From the NCBI GenBank assembly GCA_016186625.1, contig JACPLG010000007.1, positions 10,426 to 74,425 of the forward strand: a stretch of DNA of 64,000 bases. The letters are read 5' to 3'. Position numbers and translations under genes: made by a program. The notes below the pieces were generated by a model. It saw only the letters and a list, made by a program, of their open reading frames with translations, ran no database searches and was not told where the DNA came from. The DNA is from Candidatus Levyibacteriota bacterium. GTDB taxonomy: Bacteria > Patescibacteriota > Microgenomatia > Levybacterales > UBA12049. Each line of letters begins with the position of its first letter. The first letter of the stretch is position 1. Shown one piece after another: positions 2,796 through 48,257 of this stretch.

Positions 2796-3140
2796 CTATC
2801 TTGGAACTGTGATTCCCAGTAGCTTTACGCCAAGAAAGTCGCCGATTGTATTTATTATAAAAAAAGCAAGAAAAGCAATTATGAGTCCAATTAGAGCGTA
2901 AACTAGTCTATTTCTGGCGGCCTCAATTTTTTGTTTGTCTCCGCCGGAAGTTATCCACTGGATCCCTCCCCAAATAAGAAAAAAGAGAGAAGTTATGCTT
3001 ATGGCAATAAAAAGAACAGTTACGCCCCATCTAAGAACATCAACAGCTGTTCCAAGGCCGCCGCTTGGCATCCCTCTAACAGGGTTAATGGAATAATCCC
3101 CGGGTAAATTAAAAGCAAGACGTTCCATAGTTAAATTCAA
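2796..3140 (-). CDS. TrbC/VirB2-like pilin
   Basis: WGGIQWITSGGDKQKIEAARNRLVYALIGLIIAFLAFFIIN, plus an N-terminal signal region. Confidence 0.65.
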   Translation of the reverse strand: MNLTMERLAFNLPGDYSINPVRGMPSGGLGTAVDVLRWGVTVLFIAISITSLFFLIWGGIQWITSGGDKQKIEAARNRLVYALIGLIIAFLAFFIINTIGDFLGVKLLGITVPR

Positions 3141-3178: not shown

Positions 3179-3553
3179 TTAAAAGTTTTTTGCCTTAAGC
3201 TTTATAACTCCTGAACCAAGCATATTTGCTATTTCTGTGACTTCTGCCAGTAATTCTTCTATTTTATAGGCTTCTGTAAGCTTAGCATCACTTAGAAGAT
3301 TAAGCCAATATTTAGTTTCATTTGCACTTTTTAAAGCAATTTCATAATATTTTTTGAACTCTAATCTGGAGCTAGATGCGCGAGCTTCTACTAAATTCGC
3401 TCCAATAGAAGTTGCAGAACGGATTAATTGGTCTGCTATTATCCATGCGCTTCTCTTGTTGGGTAAGCTATCTGTTAGCTTGATAACATTTAGACTGAAT
3501 TTATAACAGCGTTCAACAAGATCGATTTTGAATTTTGAATTTAATTTTTGCAT
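3179..3553 (-). CDS. four-helix bundle protein (23S IVS protein family)
   Basis: ATSIGANLVEARASSS and YEIALKSANETKYWL motifs. Start chosen at the internal Met (MQKLNSKF) because the upstream part of the ORF overlaps the A/T palindromic repeat. Confidence 0.7.
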   Translation of the reverse strand: MQKLNSKFKIDLVERCYKFSLNVIKLTDSLPNKRSAWIIADQLIRSATSIGANLVEARASSSRLEFKKYYEIALKSANETKYWLNLLSDAKLTEAYKIEELLAEVTEIANMLGSGVIKLKAKNF

Positions 3554-3578
3554 TTTGCCTTTTGAATTTTGACTTGTA

Positions 3579-4487
3579 TTACCCGCCGAAGCCGGGTAAC
3601 CCCAGTATATCTCTTGTAATAAGTTCAAGTATAACAAGGGAGAATATGATAAAGAGAAGTCCAACAATTGCAGCCGTAAGCTGGTCTCTGGCATTTTTTA
3701 TTTTCTCAGGATCTCCCGCAGAAGTCATAAGACGGTATCCTGAGATAATTATAATAAGAATTACAATTGCTCCTGAAATACTTAAAACAAATCCTAAGAC
3801 CCAGCGTGTAAAATTATTTGCAGAAGTACCCACCCATCCAAAAGCAGTCTTTATTCTCACACACCCTCTCTCAAAACTACTATTCGCATCACTACAAGGC
3901 TTTGACAGAGGCTGATTGGGCTCCGTTACTGACCCCGGCCTAGCTGTTGGAGGCGTCTCTTTTGTCTCGCATTTTCCATTGATATCCAAATAAGGGTCTT
4001 TATCTCTATTAAATAGATGACCATCTCTATCAAGGCAATATCTCGTAGAGCAATCAGCTTCATCCCCCTCTCTACATTGTGCATTTGAGGTGCAGTTGTT
4101 TCGCACATTTTCGCACTGTCCAGGATCTGGCAAATCTGAGGGAGAGCAGCCTCCTATTTGGCGGCAAACTGGCTCTGAGTCAGTACACACCTCTTCATTT
4201 ACAACAGGAATAAGTAGATCCATTCTTGCTTCATGGTCTGTGCTCTCATAAAGACAATAAGGCGGCGGAGGATTACCGATACCTATTTGATCGGGGTCAC
4301 AATCATAGGCTTTCCCGCATTGTGCTGCAATCCCATCAAATATTTGTGGAGTTTTGTAGCCACTTTTTAAAGGGCAGAAGTTCTCACATTTATCACCTGC
4401 TGCGCCTAAAGCTGTTTTAGGGTTTAAATATGCAAAGGAGGCTAGCAGAATAAAAAAAGAGATTAATGCAAGCAGGATTTTTCTCAT
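3579..4487 (-). CDS. secreted Cys-rich protein with C-terminal TrbC/VirB2-like pilin domain
   Basis: Signal peptide, about 20 Cys in the central domain, and a C-terminal IISGYRLMTSAGDPEKIKNARDQLTAAIVGLLFIIFSLVI pilin-like segment. Confidence 0.6.
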   Translation of the reverse strand: MRKILLALISFFILLASFAYLNPKTALGAAGDKCENFCPLKSGYKTPQIFDGIAAQCGKAYDCDPDQIGIGNPPPPYCLYESTDHEARMDLLIPVVNEEVCTDSEPVCRQIGGCSPSDLPDPGQCENVRNNCTSNAQCREGDEADCSTRYCLDRDGHLFNRDKDPYLDINGKCETKETPPTARPGSVTEPNQPLSKPCSDANSSFERGCVRIKTAFGWVGTSANNFTRWVLGFVLSISGAIVILIIIISGYRLMTSAGDPEKIKNARDQLTAAIVGLLFIIFSLVILELITRDILGLPGFGG

Positions 4488-4911: not shown

Positions 4912-5517
4912 GTGATGCTCAGAAATACCATGGAAACGGAAACCGATCAGGGATTACTCCTTAAAGAAATCACTTTATTTTTAGGCAAGAATAAAATCCC
5001 CTATATGATCACAGGTGCATGGAGTGTAATTTTTTATGCAAGGCCCCGCGCTTCTCATGACATTGATTTTGTGGTAGAGATGCATGAGAGAGATTTAGAT
5101 AAAATATTAAAGATTTTTGAAAGATTACCCAAAGAATTTCTCGTGCAGCCCGAGCAGATTAAAGACGCCATTTTAAACAAGGGAATGTTTAACATTCTTC
5201 ATTTGCCAACAGCGTTAAAGCTCGATTTCTGGATGCTGGGAAATGGTAAATTCAATAAAAGCCGTTTCTTACGAAAGAAAAGAAAGAGTATTTTAGGGCA
5301 ATTTATGTATATAGCAAGTCCTGAAGACACTATTCTTAAAAAGCTGTTTTGGTACGAGGAATCAAAAATAGAGAAACACTTAATAGATGCTGCATTTGTA
5401 TATCAAATTCAGAATAAAAATCTCGACAAGGCTTATCTATCCAAATGGGCAAAAAAACATAAAATACAAAAGTTACTGGGAGAATTAAAATCGATAGACC
5501 TGGAGTCTTACTACTAA
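4912..5517 (+). CDS. nucleotidyltransferase-like protein, possibly frameshifted from an upstream 4794 start
   Basis: GAWSVIFYARPRASHDIDFVV resembles the NTase fold. The 57-codon ORF starting at 4794 overlaps it in another frame. Confidence 0.4.
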   Translation: MMLRNTMETETDQGLLLKEITLFLGKNKIPYMITGAWSVIFYARPRASHDIDFVVEMHERDLDKILKIFERLPKEFLVQPEQIKDAILNKGMFNILHLPTALKLDFWMLGNGKFNKSRFLRKKRKSILGQFMYIASPEDTILKKLFWYEESKIEKHLIDAAFVYQIQNKNLDKAYLSKWAKKHKIQKLLGELKSIDLESYY

Positions 5518-5638: not shown

Positions 5639-6997
5639 TTACGGATTAAATTTGAATCCTCTTCCTTTCACGGTCTGAATGTGTTGAGGTTGGTTGGGGT
5701 TTTCTTCTATCTTTTTCCTGACTCTAAAAATTAGTTGGTCTAGGGCTTGTTCACTTACCCCTGCTGTTGAGGAAAGGTCTGCCCAGACAGCATTAATTAT
5801 CTCATCTCTTTCAAGGATTTTTCCTGAGTTCTGTGCCATGAATTTTAAAAGTTTAAACTCAGAAGAAGTGAGCCCTTCGGATATGATAATCTCGCCTTTC
5901 CTGATTTCATTAGCTTGTTCATCGAAAACAATGTCTTGGCTTTTGGTTTCAATTTGATCTTTTGCAAAAGCTTCAAGCAGAGGTACGGTAATTTTTCCAT
6001 CCTTAATTAGACCAACTTTTTCAAGATGGGCAAGCTCAGAACTAGACGCTAGACGCTGATCACTAGACGCTAGTAGGCCTTGCTCATATGGGGAGAGTGA
6101 GCTCCAAATTTCATCCAAAACGGCACGTACTCGGTTTTGATTCATGAGAAAACCGAGTAAATTGTTCGATTGTTTCATTGTCTCATTGCTGTTTAAACAG
6201 GATTCGATGCTAACTAGCCATAATTTACCTAATCCCCCTGTAATCTTAGTTACTTCATCAAGGACTTTTTTATCTACACTTTTCCCTGTTGTTTTTTTAA
6301 GATATGAAAGTCTGAATTCCCTTATTTTCTCATCTCCCAGAGTTAAATAGACCAAATTTCCGACTAAAAATTCATAAAAAGAGGAAATAATTTCTGTCCC
6401 AACAGTATCCTCAAGCGGGCGATTGAGAGGAAAAACGCATGAGAAGCGGTATTTGGCTCTATCTCTAAGGACTCGTAAATGGTCAAAAAAGACAGGTTCC
6501 AAAACTCCCACGTATTCTTCAAATCGATCGAACAGTAAGATTAGGCTCAGTTCTTTTTCAAGACAGAGGTAATCAATTGTTTTCTTAAGGCCCTGGAAAA
6601 TCACCATTTCATCGCCTGATTTTAAGCCTTGGTCAAACAGCTCCTTAACACTCTTATGTTCCTCGTTCATTTTTCGGGCAGACAATGACTCAAGGATTTC
6701 AAGGAAAATATATTTTGTTGAGTCTGCTAAAGGCCTTTTTTTAATTTCTGCAAAATTCATCATCACAAAGTGAAACCATTTCTGGTTTTCTCCCAGATGA
6801 AGCTTGCGAACTGAATGATTGTATGCCAGGATCCGAAGAACATTTGATCTTCCCACTCCCCGAAGTGAAATCACCTGGCAGGAATTACCGCTTTTAAAAA
6901 AAGAGAGAATCTTCTCAATCTCCTCAAAACGCGAATCAGCGGGATAGAGACTCTCGAAGTGAGTCGTTTCCATTGTTCCATTATTCAATTGTTTCAT
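5639..6997 (-). CDS. P-loop NTPase (STAND/ORC-like) fused to a C-terminal OmpR/PhoB-type winged-helix DNA-binding domain
   Basis: Degenerate Walker A LRGVGRSN, Walker B-like LILLFDRFEE. C-terminus ALDQLIFRVRKKIE...HIQTVKGRGFKF matches the OmpR wHTH. Contains an in-frame tagacgctag repeat at 6025..6075. Confidence 0.6.
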   Translation of the reverse strand: MKQLNNGTMETTHFESLYPADSRFEEIEKILSFFKSGNSCQVISLRGVGRSNVLRILAYNHSVRKLHLGENQKWFHFVMMNFAEIKKRPLADSTKYIFLEILESLSARKMNEEHKSVKELFDQGLKSGDEMVIFQGLKKTIDYLCLEKELSLILLFDRFEEYVGVLEPVFFDHLRVLRDRAKYRFSCVFPLNRPLEDTVGTEIISSFYEFLVGNLVYLTLGDEKIREFRLSYLKKTTGKSVDKKVLDEVTKITGGLGKLWLVSIESCLNSNETMKQSNNLLGFLMNQNRVRAVLDEIWSSLSPYEQGLLASSDQRLASSSELAHLEKVGLIKDGKITVPLLEAFAKDQIETKSQDIVFDEQANEIRKGEIIISEGLTSSEFKLLKFMAQNSGKILERDEIINAVWADLSSTAGVSEQALDQLIFRVRKKIEENPNQPQHIQTVKGRGFKFNP

Positions 6998-7001
6998 TGT
7001 T

Positions 7002-7541
7002 CTAAAAGCTAAGACGCTTAATTCGCTTTCTAAAAAGGTTTTCGGTGTATCCGCCTTCCTCTATAAAGCTTTTTTCCAAAGACTGAATTTGCCTATCCAA
7101 AAGATAATTAGCTTGATTTATTAGGCAAATTAAGCAGTTAGCCGCAGTTTCGGGAGACTTCAGATAGGACCTATAGGTCTCATATGACTTATCAGTCTTA
7201 TAGGTCAGATTTCTAATTTCCCAAGCACGCGGATCATCCTTGTCCCAAATTTTAAGTCCTCGTTGTCTTAAGAAATCCTCATAATCTAGTAGAAGTTCTT
7301 CAAGAGAGGCTCTGGCAACGCCCACAAGCTTTATTTCTGATTTCTTTGAAGTACCTGATGCCTGAGATCCCTCTGCTATATTTTGTCTCCCTGATCTTGC
7401 AGCCTGAACCATTTGGTCATAAGTTCTTGAGGTTTTCTTTATATATAAATTACAGAATTCAGCAGTCAGATCATAAATCAAAGTAGCTGTTTGATAAGAC
7501 TTGAGATTTCGGTATCCTCCATGAGCTTTCTGCTTTTGCAT
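7002..7541 (-). CDS. four-helix bundle protein (23S IVS protein family, long form)
   Basis: N-terminal GGYRNLKSYQ with RSGRQNIAEGS and ARASLEEL motifs. Confidence 0.7.
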   Translation of the reverse strand: MQKQKAHGGYRNLKSYQTATLIYDLTAEFCNLYIKKTSRTYDQMVQAARSGRQNIAEGSQASGTSKKSEIKLVGVARASLEELLLDYEDFLRQRGLKIWDKDDPRAWEIRNLTYKTDKSYETYRSYLKSPETAANCLICLINQANYLLDRQIQSLEKSFIEEGGYTENLFRKRIKRLSF

Positions 7542-7658
7542 GGATCAATTATAGTTCATTAATCTTTAATCTTAAATCATTAATCTGAGGAAATCTGTAA
7601 AGTTTTTATAAGGCAAATATCAAGGCAAAATGTTTACTTAGAGATAGAATGCTCGCAT

Positions 7659-10600
7659 ATGACAAATGAAATGCAACCCGTTCGACCCGCTTCGCAGCGA
7701 GGCGAGCAAGCTCAGGGCGAGCAAGCTCGATTGACAGGGCAAAACATTAATCCTACACTGAGAAGTGAAGGAAATATTTTCATGCCGGATGCAGCTACGG
7801 GGATAAAAGTGGAAAATCCAACTACAACAGAAGGAAAAGACACTCCCGCGGAAAAAGCCACTGATGATACGCCAAAGTTTAATGGTCAAGGAAAAGACGC
7901 CGATTCCAGGACAACACTAAAGGTTATAAGCGAAGAAAATAGTGTTCCGCAAGATGTAAGAGAAGCCGCAAGAAGAGAGTTGGAAAGAGCAAAAGAAACA
8001 CACAGGGAATCTATCAGAAAAGAGTGGCAAAAGGCAAAATCAGAAGCAAAAGAAGGAGTACTAGATGATGATTCAATTGAGGCTGCCATTGAGGCGGGGC
8101 ATGGCCCAGATACTCACACTTCTAAATTATTAACCAACTTAACTGCAAGGCAGGTAATTGAGAATGCCAATCTTGACAGAGAAAGCGAAATGACACCGCA
8201 GGAAGCAAAGGAGCTTCTGGAAAGAGACAAATTATCAGAGAAGGATCAAAATGAGATTCTTGAAGCTCACCGAGAAAGACTGGATAAAGCAGAGACATTA
8301 CTTGGCAGAAAGATTTCAGTTGGACAAAAACTGGCTATTCTGCGAGCCCATTATGTAGGTTTGGGAGAATTGGGCAAAAATGGAAAGGACGCGGGAGTTT
8401 TTAACCTTAAAAAAGATCAGATTGAAAGAAGAGTAGTAATTCTAGAGAAGGCAGGGTTTAATAAAGACCAAATACGCGTACTCATAGAATCCGGCCTAAT
8501 AGCCATGGGTGCACCACCTCCCGCCCCGGGAACTGAACAATATTATACCCAGCAGATAGAAAATGTCATAAACGACTTGGACGCACTGCTAACGCCCAGA
8601 GCTGGTCATTTTACCGATACCTTTGTTGATGACACAAGTCAGCAAATACACGAACTATATACAGTTCCACGCCAAGAGCGGGAATCTGCTCGAATATGGC
8701 TAGATCGTCATGCAAACGAGGTTTACAAATATGGATCAGAACATCCAGGGCCCGCGGCGAGAGAAGCCCGAGAATTAATGGGATTTATTCGAAGGATAGC
8801 AAGTATAGACGATATAAGGCTTGGTAGAGAAGAGCAGAACGAAAGATTTAGAATCGAATTTGATACTCTTAAAGCAGATCCAGGCGCACGGGATGCGTTA
8901 GTTGAGAAAGTAATAGAGTATGTAGCAAGTATTAATCCTTCTCACCGCGAAATACCAAGCGATATTTTAAAACGAATTATCCAAACAGAGGATGAGGGAA
9001 AATCACTTGAGCGATTAGTTATTAGAATTGTTGGTACTCCTCTTCAGTCAGAGACAGGAGAGTATAGCCTTGGGTTTTATGGCAACATCAACCTAGAATC
9101 AATAAGTAATCTTTTGCAAGCAATGTCTGAAAATCCAAATCTAGAAGGTTTACAAAATCTTCCCAGGGGAGAACAGAGACGAGTGATGGACGCTAGATAC
9201 TATCAATTGCAAGAAGTCCACACAATTAAAGAGGGAGTAAGATATATCCATGAACTTAACAAGTATACTGTTACGGATCAGTTGGAAAATGCTAGGCAAT
9301 TAGGGAATCAGATGCCCCCAGAATATCTTAATAAGTTTCAAAGGCTAAAAGGTGTGGGAACTGTTATGAGATATCTTGAGTGGGCTCTTTCAGAGGTAGT
9401 TTCAAGAGAGGGTATTCTAAACAATGAAAACTTTAATAAATTAACAGGACAGGTTAGAAACCCAGACACAGGAAAATACGAAGTTAGTCAAGAGAGTTCA
9501 GTTTTTCAATCCTTCAGAAGATACATTGACATGCTAAGAAGTGGCCGGGATATAAATGGCGCCATTCTTTCTCCCAATGACCTTACTGAACTTGCCGGTT
9601 TGGAAGATTGGGAAATAAGACTAGCCTACAATATTGGGAGAAACCTTTATAACGTTGAGCATAGAAGCGTAGAGTGGGCTGCACAAGGAAGTCCCAGACC
9701 CGGATATAGCATGTGGAAATCTCCTGTTATGGAAGGATTTGCAAGGATCTTGAATTTCGGAAAGTGGTTGAATTTAAGATTTGCACTCGGAGAAGGTAGA
9801 GGAGGAATGGTTTTATTTAAGCATGTCATAGAAGTTATGCAAAGGCTAAGGCGCAATAAAGGCTATGAGAGAAATAACCCTATGACACTTGATAAAATCA
9901 AAGGTGAAGATATTGCTATGTTTGAACTGGCAAATATGACTGCGCCAAGAGGCTTCTGGGCTTCGTGGAGAGCAATGGGTGGTCTTTTGGAACAATTTGC
10001 AGCGAAATTTCATATTCGACCAAACACGCTCATTAGCGGTTATGACGTAATACATGATAAAGATGTATTGAATCCCCAGGATACTAATTTAGCATTTATA
10101 TTAGATTTCCAAGCTTTATCACTCAAAAGAGGCAACGAAGATCCTATAAAATGGGACAAAGCTACGGATGAGATGAAAATGGACTATTTAAGAGCCGTTT
10201 TTCTAAATCCGGAAAACCCAGCCCAACTGCGCCCTGATCTTAGGATTGGACTTGGCGCAATTCTTAGAATAGCCCTGACTCCAGAAGGGGGCAAAAAACA
10301 TCGGGAACTAGATAGTCTTAGGGAGACTATTAGAACCAAGATCTGGGAAAGAGTAGCAGAAGATAATCCTCTAGCTGTTGCTCCATATCTGCACGGATTG
10401 AAATATAAAGGCGGGAGAACTGTAGATATATATAATCATAATCCAAATGTAAATTGGCTGGAATTTTCCAGAAAGCTGGCATACCTAAATGAAATAAGAC
10501 TCGCTCATATTAGAGGCTATAGAGACCCAGCTACAGGCCGGATTGTAGCGAGTATAAATTATACACTCCAAGACGCAATAAATAGCGTGAGAAATGCAAC

Positions 10601-11378
10601 CCAAGGCCGTCCCGATGCCTCCCTTTATAACTTAACTGGGGCTGAAAATGATTTACTGCAGCATATTACTTTAGAAGGAAGGACAGCTGCAGCAGATCTT
10701 GCAAATGTGGAATTCCCTTTTATCCCTTTCCTTAACGATATACTTTTTGAAAGGGCTGATTATGATGAGCCTGGAGCTCAAGCTGTGGGAAGGCATTTTA
10801 ATGACTTGGCTCAAATTCATGGTTCTAACCAAGCATCAGCCGACATGTTAGTCTTTCCTGCCCAATTTATTCAAAAGGATCCTAATGCTACAGTAGAAGC
10901 ATTTAAGAAATTTGAGCAAGGAATAACAGCAGTACACGGAGATAAAGTAGGCAAAGCTAGGTTATATCCGTTTGTTGAATCGATACTTTGGTTTCATAGG
11001 AGAGGAGAAAATGGGGGCGGTCGAGTTAGAAGGTTTATTAGGAAGCAGGATGAGATTCATACGATACTGCAGAAATTTAGAATCCCAAAGATTGGATACA
11101 ACTCAGTAGCTCAGCAAGAGCTCAAAAGTTACAAACCTGAAACCCTAGACCTTGGGCAAGTTTTTGATTACATTGATTTACTTAGCGCTGAGGGACTGAT
11201 GGGTGAAGATGAACAAGATGAAGCAAAGAAAAGGCTTGGAGGCGCAGGCCGCTTTGGATGGCTCTTTATACTTAGAATGATCTGGGAGGGAGTTCAGAGA
11301 GGTACAAAAGCAGGTGCTGTAATTGGAGGAGCAGAGCTTCTTAAAAGATCATTTAATCCTAAAGGGGCTGTTGAATAA
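7659..11378 (+). CDS. giant hypothetical protein (1239 aa), no recognisable domain
   Basis: Long uninterrupted ORF with normal codon bias. Charged, coiled-coil-like N-terminal 300 aa. No TM segment or catalytic motif recognised. Confidence 0.5.
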   Translation: MTNEMQPVRPASQRGEQAQGEQARLTGQNINPTLRSEGNIFMPDAATGIKVENPTTTEGKDTPAEKATDDTPKFNGQGKDADSRTTLKVISEENSVPQDVREAARRELERAKETHRESIRKEWQKAKSEAKEGVLDDDSIEAAIEAGHGPDTHTSKLLTNLTARQVIENANLDRESEMTPQEAKELLERDKLSEKDQNEILEAHRERLDKAETLLGRKISVGQKLAILRAHYVGLGELGKNGKDAGVFNLKKDQIERRVVILEKAGFNKDQIRVLIESGLIAMGAPPPAPGTEQYYTQQIENVINDLDALLTPRAGHFTDTFVDDTSQQIHELYTVPRQERESARIWLDRHANEVYKYGSEHPGPAAREARELMGFIRRIASIDDIRLGREEQNERFRIEFDTLKADPGARDALVEKVIEYVASINPSHREIPSDILKRIIQTEDEGKSLERLVIRIVGTPLQSETGEYSLGFYGNINLESISNLLQAMSENPNLEGLQNLPRGEQRRVMDARYYQLQEVHTIKEGVRYIHELNKYTVTDQLENARQLGNQMPPEYLNKFQRLKGVGTVMRYLEWALSEVVSREGILNNENFNKLTGQVRNPDTGKYEVSQESSVFQSFRRYIDMLRSGRDINGAILSPNDLTELAGLEDWEIRLAYNIGRNLYNVEHRSVEWAAQGSPRPGYSMWKSPVMEGFARILNFGKWLNLRFALGEGRGGMVLFKHVIEVMQRLRRNKGYERNNPMTLDKIKGEDIAMFELANMTAPRGFWASWRAMGGLLEQFAAKFHIRPNTLISGYDVIHDKDVLNPQDTNLAFILDFQALSLKRGNEDPIKWDKATDEMKMDYLRAVFLNPENPAQLRPDLRIGLGAILRIALTPEGGKKHRELDSLRETIRTKIWERVAEDNPLAVAPYLHGLKYKGGRTVDIYNHNPNVNWLEFSRKLAYLNEIRLAHIRGYRDPATGRIVASINYTLQDAINSVRNATQGRPDASLYNLTGAENDLLQHITLEGRTAAADLANVEFPFIPFLNDILFERADYDEPGAQAVGRHFNDLAQIHGSNQASADMLVFPAQFIQKDPNATVEAFKKFEQGITAVHGDKVGKARLYPFVESILWFHRRGENGGGRVRRFIRKQDEIHTILQKFRIPKIGYNSVAQQELKSYKPETLDLGQVFDYIDLLSAEGLMGEDEQDEAKKRLGGAGRFGWLFILRMIWEGVQRGTKAGAVIGGAELLKRSFNPKGAVE

Positions 11379-11381
11379 TCA

Positions 11382-13034
11382 TTAAATTTTAAAGATTTGT
11401 CTCCAAACAGCTTGTGGACCACCTTTTACTCCAGGCGCGGGAGTCTTCATTGAATAAGCAGCAGTACCTCTGGCAAAAGCTCCTATGGTGGCACCTGCTT
11501 CACCTGCGGGTTGGAAGACAGGGCCGTAGTTAACTCCTGTTGCTTTTATAGCGCTTCTTGTTACATTAAGAACGTTTGGAGTGAGGAACAGAAATCCTAA
11601 GGCAATAATTCCTGAGAAAATCGGTGATCCTGCGCCTGCGCCACCTCCCGCCAGAGGAGGAATAAATATCGGGCCAGTTGCACCAAAGAGGCTTGGGTCT
11701 GCCGCAATCTGGCTAAATACTTTACCAAGAATAATCATTGAAAGCGCAGTTGGGAATACAGCCAAGTTGGCAATCATGTCCTTAAACCACGCGCCTACTC
11801 CAACAGTTGATCCTGGGAAGAGGCCAATAAGAAACCAGAAAGGCGCAAAAACTATGTCAATAAGAATAGTTATATAAGCAACAATTAGTATTATCCAAAG
11901 CCTTATTGCCGTATAAATTAAGGCAATAAATATTATTAGTGCGGATAAGACTCCCACAATTAGCCCTACTACTGCTGCAAACATATTGCCAATAATGTCA
12001 AAAAAGCCTGGTTCAAATTTGAAATCGGATGGTGGTACTCCCCCGGGAGAACCATTCAGCGCTACCTCAACCAGTCTTCTAATTGTATCCGAGCCTTGGG
12101 CAGCAAGTTCAGGAAATCCTCCCCCACCTATAACCTCTAAATCCGGATCTCCTGGCCAGAGCCTGTTTATTAAATCAAAAGGAGTGGGGGAAGTTGCAAT
12201 TTCATTAAAGCCGATTTGCTGCGCGGTGGCAGAAGGTTGCCTGATAAGATCAAAAAGGATACCCCCAACTAAATAAATTGCAACGTACATAACATCAACC
12301 AGAAATCCGGCAATTGCAAAGGAAAATGTGACCAGAAGTATTCCTACAATTATTCTGGGAATCTGGTTCTCAATGGTCATAACAGTTCTGGGATCTATAT
12401 GGACCCTAAGCATTATGGCAAGGCCAATTAGGACAAAAATTAGAACAAATAGAAGATAGGCAATATTTCTCATGGCAACCCAGATTGAAATAAGGGGCCT
12501 GATGCCACAAAACCCTACTCCTTGCGAAGCGCCTGCGCATAGATTGGTCTGGGCATATGCTTTTTTGGTTATGCCAAAATTGCCAGCCAAATAGTTTATA
12601 TACTCTCCGGAGCTTACTGGAGGGGTGAAAGTGTAGGCAATAAATGTTCCTATTATCCCAACCGCTCCATTGCCGTTTTCCACAAACCCGATTTTTCCTG
12701 TCACAGGATCAATACCCAAACACTCCTGGCCACTTCTTACTAAATCCATACCTGAGAGCTGGCAGACCATGGCAGCCATCACCTCAATTACTACAGACTG
12801 AACATAACTGTGCTGGTCTTTGGGCACATCCGGATTTAAGTTGGGAGCATAAGCGGCTGATTGCTGATTGCTGATTGCTGATTGCTGATTTCCAACTACT
12901 ACAGTAGCGTTGGTTTGAGCATAGGCTGTTCCAATATAAAATATAAAATAGAAAAAAGAAAATAGACCGAAGAATAAAACTAAACGCTTAACGCTTAACG
13001 CTAGACGCTTCGCTTGGGCAGCAATTCTCATCAA
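11382..13034 (-). CDS. polytopic membrane protein, VirB6/TrbL-like
   Basis: Signal peptide, 6 or more TM helices, Gly-rich loops. An in-frame ctgattg x5 repeat at 12855..12895 and a gcttaacgc repeat lie in the N-terminal region. Confidence 0.45.
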   Translation of the reverse strand: MMRIAAQAKRLALSVKRLVLFFGLFSFFYFIFYIGTAYAQTNATVVVGNQQSAISNQQSAAYAPNLNPDVPKDQHSYVQSVVIEVMAAMVCQLSGMDLVRSGQECLGIDPVTGKIGFVENGNGAVGIIGTFIAYTFTPPVSSGEYINYLAGNFGITKKAYAQTNLCAGASQGVGFCGIRPLISIWVAMRNIAYLLFVLIFVLIGLAIMLRVHIDPRTVMTIENQIPRIIVGILLVTFSFAIAGFLVDVMYVAIYLVGGILFDLIRQPSATAQQIGFNEIATSPTPFDLINRLWPGDPDLEVIGGGGFPELAAQGSDTIRRLVEVALNGSPGGVPPSDFKFEPGFFDIIGNMFAAVVGLIVGVLSALIIFIALIYTAIRLWIILIVAYITILIDIVFAPFWFLIGLFPGSTVGVGAWFKDMIANLAVFPTALSMIILGKVFSQIAADPSLFGATGPIFIPPLAGGGAGAGSPIFSGIIALGFLFLTPNVLNVTRSAIKATGVNYGPVFQPAGEAGATIGAFARGTAAYSMKTPAPGVKGGPQAVWRQIFKI

Positions 13035-13261: not shown

Positions 13262-14674
13262 TTAAGCGGGTCTTCTTTGTGGCTGAGAAGTCTGTTCCAC
13301 AGTACCTCTTGCCTGTTTGAATGAATCCATTACGGTATTTGCAAATAAGACTAAAAAGATACCTAATAAGAAACTTCTTATCCTTCTTTTCCTTTTCTCA
13401 TGTCTGATCATTAAATAATGCTGGTTTGCCCCCTCATATCTTGCTTCAGCTCGATCAATTTTACTTTGATCGCCGGATCTAATTGCCTCATCAAGCTCTG
13501 ATTTTAATTGGTCTCTGTATGCTTTTGCCCCTTCATCAGCTTTTGCCACTCGTTCTTCATACGAGCGAGTTGAGTCTGTCTTGGCAGCTTTTTTCATTGG
13601 CTCAAAAACCCTCTCTTTATATAGCTCAGCATGCTGTTTTCTTATTTCACTTGAACTACTATCAGCATTTGTTCCTCTTCCAAATAAGGTACGGATTCTT
13701 GAACCCAGATGTCCAAGCTTTCCTCCAATCGCTCTCTCAGCTTGTGCCCTGATATAAGAGGAATTAAGAAGCTCATCATTTTCTTCAGCCTCTTGCAGTC
13801 TTGTTTCAAACAATTTTCTATCTTGTGCATTTAAATTTCCTTCTGCTTTTTCCTCAGCCTCAGCCAACTCCTTTTGAACATCTGCGGCAAAAGAAAATAT
13901 AGGTTCGGCCGTTTCATCAGGCTCCGGAGGTTCTGCGGCAGGTGTGTCTGGCTCATCGTCTACAGGAGGAGCCTCGGCAGGTACTCCGGCGACATCCTGA
14001 TTTTCAGCTCCTACAACATCTTTTGGAGCTTCTTCAATTTCCGAACTTTCTGCTACTGTTGGGGCATCCGCCTCATCTTGAGCTGATGTAGGCGATTCAA
14101 CTATAGGGCCTGCTGCTTCCGTGGCAGAATCTGACACCTCCTTAAACCTGAGCTTTGCTGCCTCATGTCTTAATCTAGCCTGTTTAATAGCAAGTTCGTT
14201 TCCAGAAGCAAGCGCGTCATTGAGTTCTTGTAGCGTACTATCTCTGGCGGAGGCTACATCAGCAAGCTTATCTTCCACAGGACGATAATTTGCTTCGGAT
14301 CCAACAGGAGTCGGTTCCGCAGTTTCTATTGTGGGTTCAGCTGGAGTAGTTTCTGGGGAAGCATTTTTGTCTCCTGCTGATTCAGGTGTCATTGGTTCAG
14401 CGACTGGTGGAGGAAGAGATGCGGGGTCCACATCTGCTACTGTTGCCAAGCCATTATCAACAGCAGGCGGCGCAGCTTCTTCAGACTGGCCTCCTATTGC
14501 TGTTTGAACTCTCGCTGCTAGAGCTTCACCAGCTGTGGTTTCGGCGTGGCTTGGCCCAGCTGGAGATCCGCTTTCTGGAGTCGAACTTCCGGCTGCTTCC
14601 ACAGCGCCTGGTGATGCTCCTGCTTCTGCCGGTGGTGGAGCGACTGTTATGTCTGGTGATGGTAATCCTCCCAT
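13262..14674 (-). CDS. acidic Ala/Glu/Pro-rich low-complexity protein with C-terminal TM anchor
   Basis: 470 aa with coiled-coil segments. C-terminal FLLGIFLVLFANTV is hydrophobic. Confidence 0.5.
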   Translation of the reverse strand: MGGLPSPDITVAPPPAEAGASPGAVEAAGSSTPESGSPAGPSHAETTAGEALAARVQTAIGGQSEEAAPPAVDNGLATVADVDPASLPPPVAEPMTPESAGDKNASPETTPAEPTIETAEPTPVGSEANYRPVEDKLADVASARDSTLQELNDALASGNELAIKQARLRHEAAKLRFKEVSDSATEAAGPIVESPTSAQDEADAPTVAESSEIEEAPKDVVGAENQDVAGVPAEAPPVDDEPDTPAAEPPEPDETAEPIFSFAADVQKELAEAEEKAEGNLNAQDRKLFETRLQEAEENDELLNSSYIRAQAERAIGGKLGHLGSRIRTLFGRGTNADSSSSEIRKQHAELYKERVFEPMKKAAKTDSTRSYEERVAKADEGAKAYRDQLKSELDEAIRSGDQSKIDRAEARYEGANQHYLMIRHEKRKRRIRSFLLGIFLVLFANTVMDSFKQARGTVEQTSQPQRRPA

Positions 14675-14873: not shown

Positions 14874-15227
14874 CTATGTTCTATTTTCTATCGTCGAACT
14901 CTCCGTCAGGGTTTTGGCAGTTGAAATTGCTGAGTCAATATTGCCCTGTCTTATAAAATCCCGCATTTGATTTAAAACCTGGTCTCTTTTTTCATCAGTT
15001 GCTTTTTCAAGCTCATCAAGATAAACTTTCTCAGCCTCAGGATATTTTTGTCCCAAGTTTTTAAGCTTTTGCAAAAGATCAGCCTGGTCTTTTATAGGAA
15101 GAACGGCAAGGAAATCACGGGCCAGTTGCTGAGCCGCCCCAGCCTCAATTTTATTACTCTTAAGATGCTCGATAATAAGTTGGAGCAACTCTTTTTTTAC
15201 TTCTTCAACCTCTTGCGTAATATCCAC
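14874..15227 (-). CDS. hypothetical helical protein
   Basis: 117-aa ORF with no recognised motif. Confidence 0.45.
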   Translation of the reverse strand: MDITQEVEEVKKELLQLIIEHLKSNKIEAGAAQQLARDFLAVLPIKDQADLLQKLKNLGQKYPEAEKVYLDELEKATDEKRDQVLNQMRDFIRQGNIDSAISTAKTLTESSTIENRT

Positions 15228-15421: not shown

Positions 15422-16015
15422 TTGAGATACATTAGAGATATGGAAAATGAAACTGAGGGAAAAGAGTTTGAAAGGAGGGAAGAGGCACCAACTTCAAGCA
15501 GTACTCTTCCCCATGAGCATGAGCATAGCCTCAAAACCCTTCTTTCCTGGTCTGCTCCGGGACGTCCTTTTAAAGCTAGGTCAAAGCAATTTTATATGAC
15601 CGCACTCCTTATTGCCTTTTTTATTGAAGTAATACTTTTCTTATTTTCTCAGTACATGCTTATGTTTGTTGTTGCATCTCTGGTCTTTGTAGGATTTGCT
15701 TTTGCCTACGTTCCTCCCAAGAATTTTCATTATAGAATTTCAACTGAAGGACTTATGATTGAAGACCATTTTTATATCTGGCATGAGCTTTATGATTTTT
15801 ATTTTACAAAAAGACAAGGTGTTGAAGTATTAAATATTAGGACTAAAAGCATTTTCCCGGGAATTCTAACAATCTCCTTGGGGGATGTTACAAAAGAGCA
15901 CGTAAAGGATGTTTTGCTTAGATATCTGCCTTTTAGAGAGTATATTAAGCCTACTTTTCTTGAAAGATCTGGAGATTGGCTCAGCCGCAATTTCCCCCTT
16001 GAAAGACCCCAATAA
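15422..16015 (+). CDS. hypothetical membrane protein
   Basis: Two adjacent TM helices after a charged N-terminus. Confidence 0.45.
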   Translation: MRYIRDMENETEGKEFERREEAPTSSSTLPHEHEHSLKTLLSWSAPGRPFKARSKQFYMTALLIAFFIEVILFLFSQYMLMFVVASLVFVGFAFAYVPPKNFHYRISTEGLMIEDHFYIWHELYDFYFTKRQGVEVLNIRTKSIFPGILTISLGDVTKEHVKDVLLRYLPFREYIKPTFLERSGDWLSRNFPLERPQ

Positions 16016-41599: not shown

Positions 41600-41760
41600 A
41601 GATTTCAGTAAGGTTTGGGCAAGCGAGGTTTAATACCTTCACAGTGCCGCTACCGTAAAGTCGGAAAACCACCTTACGCTATTTACCCGAGCAGGTTTTT
41701 AAACGCGCAAACTTCTCGGGATACCGAAGAACGGGGCAAACGAGGAGTTTTTTTATGGTT
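41600..41760 (+). ncRNA. probable cobalamin riboswitch
   Basis: ccgctaccgtaaagtcggaaaaccacc resembles the cgcagcgguaagg and B12-box (aagcccgaagaccugcc) segments. Downstream cccgag...ctcggg hairpin and U-run. Precedes a DUF4430 gene. Confidence 0.55.
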
Positions 41761-44886: not shown

Positions 44887-47211
44887 ATGCTGACCATATT
44901 AATACTTGGTCTTCTTGTTGCTGGTACAATCGCATTTGGATATTTGGCGTTTCTCAAATATAAATTTAGAAACAAGGAAAAAGAGTCGCTTGATTCAACT
45001 CTTATTCAGGTAGCACTGCCCCGCGATAATGAAATAAAAGTTGATGCTTCGGAACAGCTTTTCTCAAGCTTTGCCTCACTTCATAAGAGTGGAACAATTC
45101 CTTTTCTTATAACTCAACCAAGTATTTCTTTTGAAATAGTAGGAATGCCTGGAGACATCCGCTTTTTTGTTTCAACCCCCAATAAATATAAAGATTTTGT
45201 CGAAAAACAGATCCATGGAGCATACCCGGACGCAGAAATAAGAGAGGTTGATGAAAAAACACCCCTTAAAGAAGGGTATGTGGTGGGAAATGACTACAAT
45301 ATTTTCGCAGAAAATGCAAAAGTAGCATTTGCGCAACTCGTTCTTAAAAAATCAAATTATGAGCCCATTAAAGTTTATAAAGACCTTCCCACAGATCCTC
45401 TCTCAACAATCACTTCAGTTCTTGCCAAGATGACTGAAGGAGAAGGAGCTGCAATTCAGGTGCTAATTTCCCCGGCTGACTCAAAATGGAAAAAGTTAGG
45501 AAGAGACTTCCTGGCAAAGACCAAAAAAGAGGAAGCAAACCCTGAAACAGCAAAATACTCGGCCGATCCAAAAGAGCTTGAGGGGATTGAAAATAAGATA
45601 GGAAAGCCTGGGTTTAGCACAGTTATTAGAGTAGTTGTTTCTTCATCAACTAAAGAATCAGCGGAAGCACATCTTAACAATATTGTCAATGTTTTCAGTC
45701 AGTTTTCGGGTCTTAATTCTTTCACAAAAAGCGCAGTAAGAAGACAAAAATCTTTTATGGACGATTTTATTTATCGTTATCCTAAAAGAATAGGTACTTC
45801 GTCAATTTTAACCTCGGAAGAACTTGCAACAATCTATCATTTTCCAAATAAATCTGTTGCAACACCTCACATTTTCTGGATTACTTCAAAAAGAGCTCCA
45901 GCTGCTGCACACGTTCCGACAACAGGTTTGTACCTTGGAAAAAGTTCGTATAGAGGTTTGTCTCGAGATGTGTTTATCGAGCGAGATGATAGAAGACGCC
46001 ATATGTACATAATCGGAAAAACAGGAACTGGAAAAACAGAATTTCTAAAACAAATGATTATGCAGGATATAAAAAACGGAGAAGGAGTAGGAGTAGTAGA
46101 TCCTCATGGAGATTTAATTGAAGATGTTTTGCAGCTGATTCCGCCTGAGAGAGCAGAAGATGTTATTCTTTTTGACCCATCAGACACAGCCCGCCCCATG
46201 GGGCTAAATATGCTTGAGGCTTCAACTGAGGAGGAAAGACACTATGTTGTCTCATCAATAGTTGGCCTTATGTACAAGCTTTATGATCCTAATAAAACCG
46301 GAATAATCGGCCCCAGATTTGAACACGCAATTAGAAACGCAATGTTAACGGTTATGAGTAAGCCGGGAAGTACATTTATTGAGGTTGTCCGCGTTTTAAC
46401 TGATGCTAATTTTGTTCAGGAACTTTTGCCTTACGTCCAGGATCCTATCGTTCGCCGTTACTGGACGGACCAAATTGCTCAAACTTCAGATTTTCATAAG
46501 TCCGAGGTTTTGGACTATATAGTTTCCAAGTTTGGCCGCTTTGTTACCAATAAAACCATGAGAAACATAATAGGCCAATCCGAATCTGCGTTTAATTTCC
46601 GGGATGTTATGGATAATCAGAAAATACTTCTTGTTAATCTTTCCAAGGGAAAAATCGGAGAAGAAAATTCAGGTTTCCTGGGATTAGTTTTAGTCCCCAA
46701 GATTTTAGTAGCTGCAATGAGCAGGCAGAGTGTTTCAATGGATCAGCGTAAAGACTTTTTTCTCTATGTTGATGAATTCCAGAATTTTGCAACTCCGGAT
46801 TTTGCTCAGATTTTGTCCGAAGCCAGAAAATATCGTCTGGATTTAATAGTTGCCAATCAATTTATAGGACAAATGGAAGAGGAGGTTAAAAACGCGATTT
46901 TTGGAAATGTTGGGACACTTGCTGCATTTCGCGTAGGGGTAACTGATGCAAATTACCTCCAGCATGAGTTCCAACCAACGTTTACGGAAGCAGATCTAAT
47001 CAATATTGACCGCTTCAACGCTTATATGAGAACCGTTGTAAACGGAGAGCCAATTCCTCCATTTTCACTTGATACGACAAAGGATATGGAGCGCGAAAAA
47101 GCAATGATGAATCCAAGAGTTTCAGAGTTAATTAAGGAATTATCCAGACTCAAATACGGAAAAGATGTTGGTGTGATTGAGCAGGTAATAGCCCAGAGAG
47201 CATTACTTTAG
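44887..47211 (+). CDS. T4SS-type ATPase of the FtsK/HerA superfamily (VirB4/TraC-like, possibly VirD4-like) with N-terminal TM
   Basis: Walker A IIGKTGTGKTEF, Walker B FFLYVDEFQNF, ARKYRLDLIVANQ. Confidence 0.6.
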   Translation: MLTILILGLLVAGTIAFGYLAFLKYKFRNKEKESLDSTLIQVALPRDNEIKVDASEQLFSSFASLHKSGTIPFLITQPSISFEIVGMPGDIRFFVSTPNKYKDFVEKQIHGAYPDAEIREVDEKTPLKEGYVVGNDYNIFAENAKVAFAQLVLKKSNYEPIKVYKDLPTDPLSTITSVLAKMTEGEGAAIQVLISPADSKWKKLGRDFLAKTKKEEANPETAKYSADPKELEGIENKIGKPGFSTVIRVVVSSSTKESAEAHLNNIVNVFSQFSGLNSFTKSAVRRQKSFMDDFIYRYPKRIGTSSILTSEELATIYHFPNKSVATPHIFWITSKRAPAAAHVPTTGLYLGKSSYRGLSRDVFIERDDRRRHMYIIGKTGTGKTEFLKQMIMQDIKNGEGVGVVDPHGDLIEDVLQLIPPERAEDVILFDPSDTARPMGLNMLEASTEEERHYVVSSIVGLMYKLYDPNKTGIIGPRFEHAIRNAMLTVMSKPGSTFIEVVRVLTDANFVQELLPYVQDPIVRRYWTDQIAQTSDFHKSEVLDYIVSKFGRFVTNKTMRNIIGQSESAFNFRDVMDNQKILLVNLSKGKIGEENSGFLGLVLVPKILVAAMSRQSVSMDQRKDFFLYVDEFQNFATPDFAQILSEARKYRLDLIVANQFIGQMEEEVKNAIFGNVGTLAAFRVGVTDANYLQHEFQPTFTEADLINIDRFNAYMRTVVNGEPIPPFSLDTTKDMEREKAMMNPRVSELIKELSRLKYGKDVGVIEQVIAQRALL

Positions 47212-47270
47212 CGTTTAGCTACTAGCGTTTAGTTTTTCTTGGTGTGCTGAAAGCACTGAGCTTGTCGAAG

Positions 47271-47342
47271 TGCTCCCGCTTGGATTCGAACCAAGGACAT
47301 CTACTTTATAAGAGTAGCGCTCTACCACTGAGCTACAGGAGC
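47271..47342 (-). tRNA. tRNA-Ile(UAU)
   Basis: Cloverleaf. Acceptor gctcctg/cgggagc, anticodon stem ctact/agtag, loop cuUAUaa, T-arm cttgg-ttcgaat-ccaag. Confidence 0.8.
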
Positions 47343-47396: not shown

Positions 47397-48257
47397 TTAT
47401 AGCTCTGAGAGGACTTGGGATTCGGGGGCGCGCTGGGGAACATACTGAAGATATCGCTCGGTTGTTGAAAGTCTTTTGTGACCAAGCATTTTTGAAAGAA
47501 GAACAATTGAAGCGCCGTGTTTGAGATGGTGGGCAACAAAAGTATGTCTTAGGTCATTTACTTTGGCATTTTTGATCTCGGCAAGCCTGAAATACCTCTC
47601 AACTGATGTCCTTATGTTTCTGATCAAAAACGGCCTTCCAGATTTTGTGACAAATAAATGGTCTTCCGTAACTTTTGGACGCACATCCAAATACCTTTTT
47701 AAGGCTTCCTGAGCTCTTTTGTTAAGGGGAACCACTCTTTCTTCATGTTTTTCTAACGCCGGAATGTGTATTTGGTCTTTTCGAATATCTGAGAGCTTAA
47801 GAGCAGTGAGCTCTCCTATTCTAATACCGGTTTGGAGCAAAAGTTCAATTATTGCACTCATCCGAGCATCATTTCTGGCTGCATCTCGCAAAGCCCTATA
47901 TTCCGTAGGAGTTAAAATTCTAGGAGGCGCAAGCTCATATTTTGGGTGAGCTACCAAAAGTGAAGGATCATCTGTTATGTATTCATTTATCTTTAAAAAC
48001 CTATAAAAAGTGCGAGTTGAATTAATTTTCCGCGAGATTGACTTAGGAGTGTAACCGTCTTTGTTCATCTTAGCTAAGAATGCTTCAAGATCCTCTTTTG
48101 TTATATCGCGGACATGATGTTTTTGAAGGTCGTTTAAAAAGTCCACAAGCTGCTCTATATCTTTACCGTATGCTACAATAGTTGAGGTTGAGTGACCTTT
48201 TTCTTTAAGAAAATTTTTAAATCCTAAGCTGGCATCAGCAAGTTTTATTTGATTCAT
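47397..48257 (-). CDS. tyrosine site-specific recombinase (XerC/XerD-like)
   Basis: C-terminal RHTFVAHHL...LGH...TTERYL catalytic motifs. 286 aa. Confidence 0.85.
   Translation of the reverse strand: MNQIKLADASLGFKNFLKEKGHSTSTIVAYGKDIEQLVDFLNDLQKHHVRDITKEDLEAFLAKMNKDGYTPKSISRKINSTRTFYRFLKINEYITDDPSLLVAHPKYELAPPRILTPTEYRALRDAARNDARMSAIIELLLQTGIRIGELTALKLSDIRKDQIHIPALEKHEERVVPLNKRAQEALKRYLDVRPKVTEDHLFVTKSGRPFLIRNIRTSVERYFRLAEIKNAKVNDLRHTFVAHHLKHGASIVLLSKMLGHKRLSTTERYLQYVPQRAPESQVLSEL

Follow-up and report, generated by a model that had tools for sequence, protein, structure and literature searches.

We analysed a 64,000-nucleotide stretch of DNA from a Candidatus Levyibacteriota bacterium (assembly GCA_016186625.1, contig JACPLG010000007.1, positions 10,426 to 74,425 of the forward strand), hereafter called the window, around a giant open reading frame (ORF) at 7659..11378. 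The gene proved to be a fixed member of a type IV secretion system (T4SS) locus of Microgenomates, and its product is putatively a protein exported by that system. The ORF and the elements recognized within it and directly before it are as follows.

7592..7625, forward strand: conserved promoter-like block of 34 nt, aatcTGTAAAgtTTTTaTaAggcaaaTATCAAG, recovered by aligning upstream regions, with the consensus TGTAAA..TTTT.T.A.....TATCAAG
7659..11378, forward strand: giant ORF with an ATG start and a TAA stop, 1239 amino acids (aa), belonging to an unannotated family of proteins of roughly 850-1700 aa
7731..7787, forward strand: N-terminal conserved peptide (N-peptide; residues 25-43), LTGQNINPTLRSEGNIFMP, with residues that are invariant in close homologues
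8271..8513, forward strand: helical domain of ~85 aa (residues 205-285), the only part of the giant protein that can be aligned with P0009, a divergent relative presented below
8934..11225, forward strand: conserved all-alpha core (residues 426-1189), delimited by conservation over 98 sequences and an AlphaFold2 model
11226..11354, forward strand: C-terminal basic cluster (KKR) and long helix (C-helix), recognized from the hydropathy of the last 60 residues in 98 family members

The first-pass annotation had reported an uninterrupted 3.7-kb ORF with normal coding statistics, and our measurements bear this out. Based on the proportion of stop trinucleotides in the window (5.2%), the chance of an open frame of 1239 codons is P ~10^-28.6 per start; the remaining five frames over 7659-11378 contain 44-121 stops each, and the GC content by codon position is 0.55/0.38/0.32. 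The protein is recorded in the databases as hypothetical protein HYW63_02020 from a Candidatus Levybacteria metagenome-assembled genome (MAG). Seven full-length homologues, with 34-42% identity, are collinear with it from end to end and without frameshifts, so that an artefact of assembly or frameshift is excluded. Only its unusual length and its missing annotation could have spoken for a chance open frame or for fused or frameshifted genes; the coding statistics, the collinear full-length homologues found in many independent assemblies and the confident structure prediction described below have already refuted that explanation, to which we leave practically no chance. The giant gene is real and intact.

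The surroundings of the gene were compared in 29 distinct loci, 23 of which have more than 300 nt of downstream DNA and 16 more than 2.5 kb of upstream DNA. These loci came from the contigs of three close homologues, from a scan of genome contigs with a single narrow peptide pattern (6 loci) and from a metagenome scan; the latter, performed with a distant subgroup, provided 27 more loci whose giant proteins are about 21-28% identical to that of the window. The three close-homologue contigs have a common gene order, with an array of VirB2-like pilin genes (PF18895), a Trans_reg_C regulator, the giant gene on the opposite strand and a convergent gene for a membrane protein of ~530 aa, and one of them carries PrgI (PF12666) and a TraC-like gene further upstream. 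We observed that the convergent membrane gene is the immediate downstream neighbour of the giant gene in 23/23 loci, with a gap of -4 to +19 nt. Pilin homologues lie upstream in 15 of the 16 loci in which they could be looked for, and the regulator in 10 of these 16, with 45-70% identity. Further upstream, locus L028 encodes a VirB4-type ATPase (P-loop_TraG, AAA_10), a 211-aa protein and PrgI. Most of the other genes in these loci are transcribed in the direction opposite to that of the giant gene.

Even peripheral members of the family (P0137 and P0152, E about 1e-18 to 1e-20) occupy the same slot. So does P0009 (1676 aa), which lies exactly there beside a regulator with 43% identity and a VirB6-like gene with 38% identity; it can be aligned with the window protein over the 85-aa domain only, and it retains the N-peptide and the C-helix. 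Across the homologous loci, VirB4, PrgI/VirB3-like proteins and VirB2-like pilins are linked to the giant gene, as in an MPF-FATA-like cluster. The convergent neighbour in 23/23 loci and the upstream pilins thus establish the giant protein as a fixed part of the T4SS locus of Microgenomates, in which it is locked to the VirB6-like gene. The first-pass annotation had linked it to a T4SS-like apparatus; this link is strongly supported and far more general than proposed, since every related locus examined has the gene in the same slot, flanked by the pilin/regulator block and the VirB6-like gene. These loci match the published picture of the patescibacterial T4SS, which is MPF-FATA-like, with abundant pilin arrays and a hardly detectable VirB6 in Microgenomatia and without a relaxase (PMC12102498). 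Five of the MAG contigs (L004-L008: CAZBFH01, CAYORA01, CAZLQR01, CAYXTY01 and CAZMGC01) are titled 'uncultured Gammaproteobacteria bacterium'. These labels look wrong, because their pilin arrays, regulator and giant protein and the 60-77% identity to the Levybacteria neighbours are like those of Microgenomates and the Candidate Phyla Radiation (CPR).

In the window, the genes that accompany the giant gene, and a distant coupling-protein gene, are the following.

2796..3140, reverse strand: small pilin-like protein with two predicted transmembrane (TM) segments, matching the NCBIfam Mbov_0395 pilin-like conjugal transfer family at E 9e-06, below the curated cut-off
3579..4487, reverse strand: VirB2-like T4SS pilin with a long Cys-rich N-terminal extension (Pfam PF18895 T4SS_pilin, E 4.5e-09)
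5639..6997, reverse strand: regulator with a large N-terminal domain and a C-terminal OmpR/PhoB-type winged helix (Pfam Trans_reg_C, E 7e-20; also NCBIfam)
7002..7541, reverse strand: 4-helix-bundle 23S_rRNA_IVP-like gene between the regulator and the giant gene (weak Pfam match to PF05635, E 1.7e-07)
11382..13034, reverse strand: convergent partner gene, 550 aa, with a signal-like N-terminus, a Cys-containing extracytoplasmic region and multiple TM segments by hydropathy; candidate divergent VirB6 analogue
13262..14674, reverse strand: acidic Pro/Ala/Glu-rich protein of 470 aa with a C-terminal TM segment, mostly of low complexity, downstream of the VirB6-like gene
44887..47211, forward strand: VirD4-like coupling protein (T4CP; Pfam TrwB_AAD_bind, T4SS-DNA_transf and TraG-D_C), 33 kb from the giant locus

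Besides these pilins, the regulator and the VirB6-like gene, no part of the T4SS locus is present among the window ORFs scanned, and no VirB4 was found there. The product of 2796..3140 matches, by BLAST, the pilin-array genes of all related loci. The regulator, transcribed away from the giant gene, and the IVP-like gene, which scores 31.9 bits against PF05635 for a curated cut-off of 33.8 bits, are the divergent upstream neighbours that had been named before. An IVP-family gene also immediately precedes the giant gene in L014, L039 and L040, and in L020 the gene in this position is 25% identical to the window's other IVP gene. Genes of this family recur both in pilin arrays and directly upstream of the giant gene (window 7002-7541, 3179-3694 and 2369-2713; L003, L014, L020, L039 and L040), and some of them also match bAvd, an accessory family of diversity-generating retroelements; no reverse transcriptase or template/variable repeat was noticed, although no search aimed at them was made. 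Between the pilin genes and the regulator, the window contains a gene for an AbiEii-like nucleotidyltransferase (type IV toxin-antitoxin toxin; weak Pfam match) at 4912-5517 (+), which is absent from homologous loci.

The first-pass annotation had placed a VirB6-like membrane protein gene 4 nt downstream on the opposite strand. A convergent gene for a polytopic protein is indeed there; the gap is of 3 nt (window 11376-11384), and the name 'VirB6-like' holds by topology and position only. In a T4SS locus we counted as VirB6-like a protein with at least five TM helices, and the orthologues of this protein have 6-10 predicted ones. We found no Pfam match for 15 orthologues, no PDB match with a 15-sequence profile and no match to TrbL/VirB6 or PrgH. 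This missing sequence match fits the scarcity of detectable VirB6 reported for Microgenomatia (PMC12102498). A tRNA-Ser gene separates the VirB6-like gene from the 13262-14674 gene in the window. Homologues of the product of the latter occupy the same slot in L001/L006 and in L007, with about 29-30% identity over the C-terminal 200 aa, and its membership of the T4SS is uncertain.

In six loci the stop codons of the giant and VirB6-like genes overlap by 4 nt. The convergent junction is also seen in L014, L018, L020, L021, L022 and L024 and in other loci. No terminator was found between the two genes and there is no room for one; therefore the 3' ends of their mRNAs must overlap. Consensus scans for promoters and terminators gave as many hits as expected from shuffled sequence, or fewer, and were uninformative. 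On the other side of the gene, the upstream block and a CATATG at the start codon are invariant or conserved in the window and in six homologous loci, for proteins that are only 36-42% identical. This suggests that 7592..7625 serves the giant gene as a promoter or operator of its own, adjacent to the divergent regulator gene, and it may be where this OmpR-type regulator acts.

Conserved linkage could in principle mean no more than conserved gene order in small syntenic CPR genomes, the giant protein being a cytoplasmic membrane-associated enzyme or scaffold unrelated to secretion (for instance in lipid, cell-wall or nucleotide handling). Housekeeping genes are present within the same loci: NadE and cytidylyltransferase-like (NadD-type) genes lie amid the pilin arrays of distant loci (L028 5710-7167; L039 1313-2713), and gene pairs of similar size are found in the same position in L010, L011, L026, L035 and L036. 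Well-conserved neighbours outside the T4SS also travel along, namely p117 (14874-15227, -; 117 aa) and p197 (15422-16015, +; 197 aa, with two predicted TM segments in orthologues), the latter usually within a few kb downstream of the locus, and conserved H, E, D, R, K and S residues of the giant protein could form an active site. We consider this explanation improbable.

We searched for relatives of the protein. The giant protein alone has no match in Pfam, NCBIfam, PHROGs or PDB sequences (phmmer), in agreement with its earlier description as a protein without recognizable domains, and no homology to a known housekeeping family came to light in these databases. A 28-sequence family profile likewise matched no PDB sequence. 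Word-indexed homologue searches, alignment queries included, returned only 8 close relatives. An exhaustive hidden Markov model (HMM) search, in which a profile of residues 160-1239 was run against 1.84 billion cluster representatives, yielded 603 clusters at E<=1e-3, 249 at E<=1e-10 and 93 at E<=1e-30, the clusters being defined at 50% identity. Most members have 850-1300 aa, within a full span of about 850-1700 aa, and the distant relatives, where they have a name in their source, are called 'hypothetical protein'. In 43 relatives that were scanned, no Pfam family was common to all; we found sporadic extras only, such as ankyrin repeats in one protein. The literature that we searched contains no description of the family, and PMC12102498 does not mention it. 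The patescibacterial T4SS itself is already known, but this literature describes neither the giant family and its fold nor its invariant pairing with the VirB6-like gene nor the 85-aa domain.

A conservation profile over 98 sequences divides the giant protein into five parts. The first is the N-peptide, whose motif in the family is (E)LT-x(4-24)-[IFVLYM][FYIMLS]M followed within 3 residues by D/E/N/S/G/P/A, or, in another form, (E)LT...G(D/N)IFM(x)(D/E). In the close set, L25, T26, N31-L34 and I40-M42 are invariant. The peptide is visible in most family members, with a match to the strict pattern in 53/97, and it is also present in the divergent P0009. A low-complexity Pro/Thr/Glu-rich linker follows, to about residue 95, and then a variable helical region to about residue 425, which encloses the small conserved domain at residues 205-285. 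The N-terminal third had been described as charged and coiled-coil-like; it consists of helices that form the variable part of the family, and a coiled coil was not demonstrated. The core comes next, with the near-invariant residues Y474, N478, H531, N534, W651, R669, E672, R707, G716, W770, R771, G866, W896, K939, E996, D1027, G1039, R1045, D1049, S1149 and Q1152, and the last part is the basic cluster with the C-helix.

An AlphaFold2 model built from 8 sequences was mediocre (pLDDT 67). With the 98-sequence alignment, residues 86-1239 were modelled at pLDDT 91.8 and pTM 0.77, and most 10-residue blocks of the core exceed a pLDDT of 90. The model is almost wholly alpha-helical, compact and globular, with few short strands. 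A fold search of this model against the PDB returned no match, and specifically no lysozyme-like, relaxase, recombinase, NTPase or adhesin fold; by these PDB-based tests the predicted architecture is new. The earlier suggestion of an adhesin is not supported by these data, as the protein is without a signal peptide, a wall-anchor motif or a beta-rich or repeat architecture.

The motif scan and the hydropathy analysis agreed with the earlier statement that the protein lacks TM helices and Walker or metalloprotease motifs. Regular expressions detected no Walker A (GxxxxGK[ST]), HExxH, LPXTG or lipobox, no TM segment is predicted when the 19-residue hydropathy threshold is set at 1.6, and the N-terminus has no hydrophobic segment, lipobox or Sec signal peptide. 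Outside the C-terminal region, 97/98 members of the family have no TM segment. An 'AYNxG'-like motif together with a conserved Glu had pointed to a lytic transglycosylase (VirB1-like); we rejected this assignment, because the spacing is wrong and there is neither a signal peptide nor a lysozyme-like fold match. Relaxase, recombinase, NTPase and metalloprotease assignments were rejected on motifs and the fold search. No homology to any described T4SS subunit family was found in Pfam, NCBIfam, PHROGs or the PDB (sequence and fold).

These results also bear on the possibility that the giant protein is a DNA-processing or pilot protein, a substitute for a relaxase with which the CPR T4SS would be a machine for DNA transfer. 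Most patescibacterial T4SS loci lack a relaxase, and the existence of 'very different relaxases' has been left open (PMC12102498); like relaxases, the giant protein is large and without a Sec signal, and it has conserved Tyr, His, Arg and Lys residues. It shows, however, none of the folds or motifs of HUH, Rep_trans, PD-(D/E)xK or tyrosine-recombinase proteins, and the fold searches disfavour such a role, which we regard as very improbable.

We compared the rates at which the genes of the locus change. All identities were measured against the window genes, and the values for distant loci are those of the best high-scoring segment pairs. In close loci, identity reaches 66-70% for the regulator, 61-65% for the VirB6-like protein, 67-74% for p117 and 75-77% for p197, but only 36-42% for the giant protein. 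In distant loci, the giant protein is 22-28% identical, vs 35-61% for the VirB6-like protein and 45-55% for the regulator. The neighbours p117 and p197 are far better conserved than the T4SS genes (67-77% in close loci; p197 57-66% in distant loci). By these alignments, the giant gene is the fastest-changing gene of the locus. The longest-persisting parts of the family are its terminal elements, i.e. the N-peptide and the C-terminal basic-plus-hydrophobic helix, together with the 85-aa domain.

The 85-aa domain has the consensus AE..LGR.LT..Q..AI..AH.VG.GE.GKDG..A..GNYT..QL..K..IL.EAGF...E.R.L.E.G.VG and matches no Pfam or PDB sequence. We found it, in 1-3 copies, in unrelated proteins of 460-1900 aa (P0056, P0110, P0116, P0124, P0126, P0140, P0141, P0145, P0149, P0151 and P0083), six of which have N-terminal Sec signal peptides. 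One carrier, among those with a Sec signal, is a protein of 1495 aa with a long array of ankyrin repeats, encoded outside any T4SS locus. Another adjoins LolA and Fic genes, a neighbourhood that points to a diderm and apparently non-CPR organism. Because the domain recurs in large proteins with Sec signals, its distribution suggests an extracytoplasmic role.

Taken together, the data make us prefer, at somewhat less than an even chance, the reading in which the giant protein is a putative T4SS-dedicated exported protein, either cargo or a component of the tip or translocon. We infer this role from the following points. The protein has no Sec signal, and its conserved termini accompany a fast-diverging, length-variable body; the 85-aa domain is common to exported proteins and the gene appears to be separately regulated; and the substrate of the patescibacterial T4SS is unknown, protein export having been proposed for it (PMC10633639, PMC11665869). 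The absence of a Sec signal and a synthesis in the cytoplasm are in line with an effector, and the 'secreted effector' part of the first-pass annotation is plausible and is what we prefer.

In such a mechanism, the giant gene would be expressed from a conserved promoter of its own, adjacent to the regulator, and its product would be synthesized in the cytoplasm with no Sec signal. The protein would be recognized through its N-terminal peptide and/or its C-terminal basic-plus-hydrophobic helix at a translocon formed by VirB4 and the VirB6-like protein, and the T4SS would then export it to the cell surface, the pilus tip or a host cell. The machine would keep the trafficking elements (N-peptide, 85-aa domain and C-helix) constant, while the core of ~800 aa would be a payload diverging rapidly with the host. 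Functionally, the protein would resemble either a single dedicated substrate encoded in the locus, as is CagA, or a VirB5-like partner of VirB6, with homology to neither. The basic cluster with the C-helix and the N-peptide are the candidate translocation signals of the family, and the helix could equally be a membrane anchor.

Several points weigh against export. Known T4SS signals usually lie at the C-terminus and none has been defined for this class of T4SS. The 85-aa domain is only indirect evidence on the topology of the giant protein. A single copy in a fixed slot beside a channel gene is also expected of a structural subunit. Within the detectable family the core is strongly constrained, as its compact fold and its many near-invariant polar residues show. 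The T4CP gene lies far (33 kb) from the giant gene, and in Southlakia the T4CP is reported to be non-essential (PMC12102498). The T4CP of the window is a possible substrate recruiter whose link to the giant locus is unproven. Its gene adjoins a tRNA-Ile(tat) gene at 47270-47342 (-) and a tyrosine-recombinase gene at 47397-48257 (-), and the three may be the remnant of an integrated element and not a part of the chromosomal T4SS. Elsewhere in the window, a match to an AdoCbl-II riboswitch (41608-41677, +; 36.8 bits for an Rfam gathering score of 36.5 bits) follows a ribonucleotide reductase gene (39128-41530) and precedes small ORFs.

The C-helix of the window protein is amphipathic, with a maximum 19-residue hydropathy of 0.73. 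In the last 60 residues of the family members, this maximum reaches >=1.6 in 42/98 and >=1.2 in 72/98, and a basic triplet precedes the helix in 59/98. In many relatives the C-helix is hydrophobic and tail-anchor-like. In the 42 relatives with >=1.6 it is hydrophobic enough to serve as a tail anchor in the producer's own membrane, which fits a resident subunit as well. The giant protein would then be tethered by its C-helix beside the VirB6-like protein and form a large cytoplasmic platform of a minimal monoderm T4SS. We take such a subunit, which the first-pass annotation did not consider, as a serious alternative. In effect it would supply in trans the hydrophilic domain of an 'extended VirB6', or substitute for missing VirB8-type or other parts of the inner-membrane complex.

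The invariant adjacency to the VirB6-like gene, the single copy in a fixed slot, the tail-anchor-like C-terminus after a basic cluster and the compact, confidently predicted fold with many near-invariant residues all agree with such a subunit. The loci also encode few further components of the apparatus, namely VirB4, a TraC/TrsD-like protein, PrgI and pilins, and there are known VirB6 proteins that are extended by large hydrophilic domains (PMC12857230). In Southlakia, the essential proteins SEML1_0011 and SEML1_0013 (about 1000-1090 aa) have ARM-repeat-like helical domains, and SEML1_0013 is annotated as TrbL/VirB6-like (PMC10633639). Against a resident subunit, the giant gene is the fastest-evolving one of the locus, its product varies twofold in length, and in P0009-type lineages the core is beyond recognition while the VirB6-like partner keeps 38% identity. 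No fusion of the giant and VirB6-like proteins was found, the family profile matches no VirB6-like protein in 40 loci, and no polytopic body was found among the best 150 profile hits. The giant gene is on the opposite strand to most apparatus genes, with its own promoter-like block, and the C-helix of the window protein is amphipathic and not hydrophobic. On balance, we judge a resident subunit, the main rival of the exported protein, possible but rather unlikely.

The reading of an exported protein can be compared with known systems. CagA of the Helicobacter pylori cag T4SS has about 1200 aa, is mostly alpha-helical, had a novel fold when it was solved and lacks a Sec signal. It has a fixed place inside the T4SS island, of which its gene is the fastest-evolving one, and it is the single dedicated protein substrate. 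The giant protein resembles CagA in size, helicity, absence of a Sec signal, fixed place in a T4SS locus and fast evolution, and this likeness is a functional analogy only. Other effectors, such as the Xanthomonas X-Tfe with their XVIPCD and the Bartonella Beps with their BID, combine a conserved recognition module with a variable payload. The giant protein is like them in its persistent short trafficking-like elements, its fast-diverging body and a small domain common to unrelated large proteins. The 85-aa domain, for its part, is not confined to T4SS loci or to CPR and co-occurs with Sec signals, so that it is not a proven T4SS signal, and it has no homology to XVIPCD or BID by Pfam.

VirB5 is a protein of about 220 aa with a Sec signal. 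Pilus-tip proteins of the VirB5/TraC type, structural partners of VirB6 (PMC12857230), are all-alpha and variable in sequence, as is the giant protein, and their gene adjoins virB6 in systems with VirB2-like pilins. In contrast to them, the giant protein is 5 times larger, lacks a signal peptide and has no detectable homology, and VirB5-type structures were not among the fold hits. For the native patescibacterial T4SS no VirB5 homologue has been reported, the sole one being in a genome with an MPF-T-type VirB4 (PMC12102498). The extended VirB6 proteins (F TraG, rickettsial RvhB6 and Southlakia SEML1_0011 and SEML1_0013, the latter pair being compared by their published description) resemble the giant protein in that, in a T4SS locus, a polytopic membrane protein of the VirB6 type goes together with a large mass that is helical and hydrophilic. 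The giant protein differs from them as a separate polypeptide encoded on the opposite strand, with no fusion or profile match in the 40 loci.

A further-reaching proposal, which we find doubtful as a whole, is that the giant family is the long-sought cargo, or the first-exported tip or translocon component, of the patescibacterial T4SS. It would be CagA- or VirB5-like with a new fold, would be loaded through the VirB4/VirB6-like channel by its N-peptide and C-helix and would diversify along with its host. As to the 85-aa domain, it would be a new, widespread module of extracellular or host interaction, shared with secreted ankyrin-repeat proteins and other giant proteins of unrelated bacteria.

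T4SS genes occur widely in Patescibacteria, and in Southlakia, the one species tested and the only one with Tn-seq data, they are essential for growth as an epibiont (PMC10633639). The role of this T4SS has been called completely unknown, with no substrate, relaxase or VirB5-type partner identified (PMC11665869, PMC12102498, PMC12857230). The giant family is a prime candidate for what the CPR T4SS exports or is built from, that is, for its missing cargo or subunit, and as cargo or as scaffold alike it offers a concrete and testable handle on the job of this machine. The family also provides a genomic marker for divergent T4SS loci whose VirB6 escapes detection, and it brings to light a new 85-aa domain common to secreted giant proteins of other bacteria.

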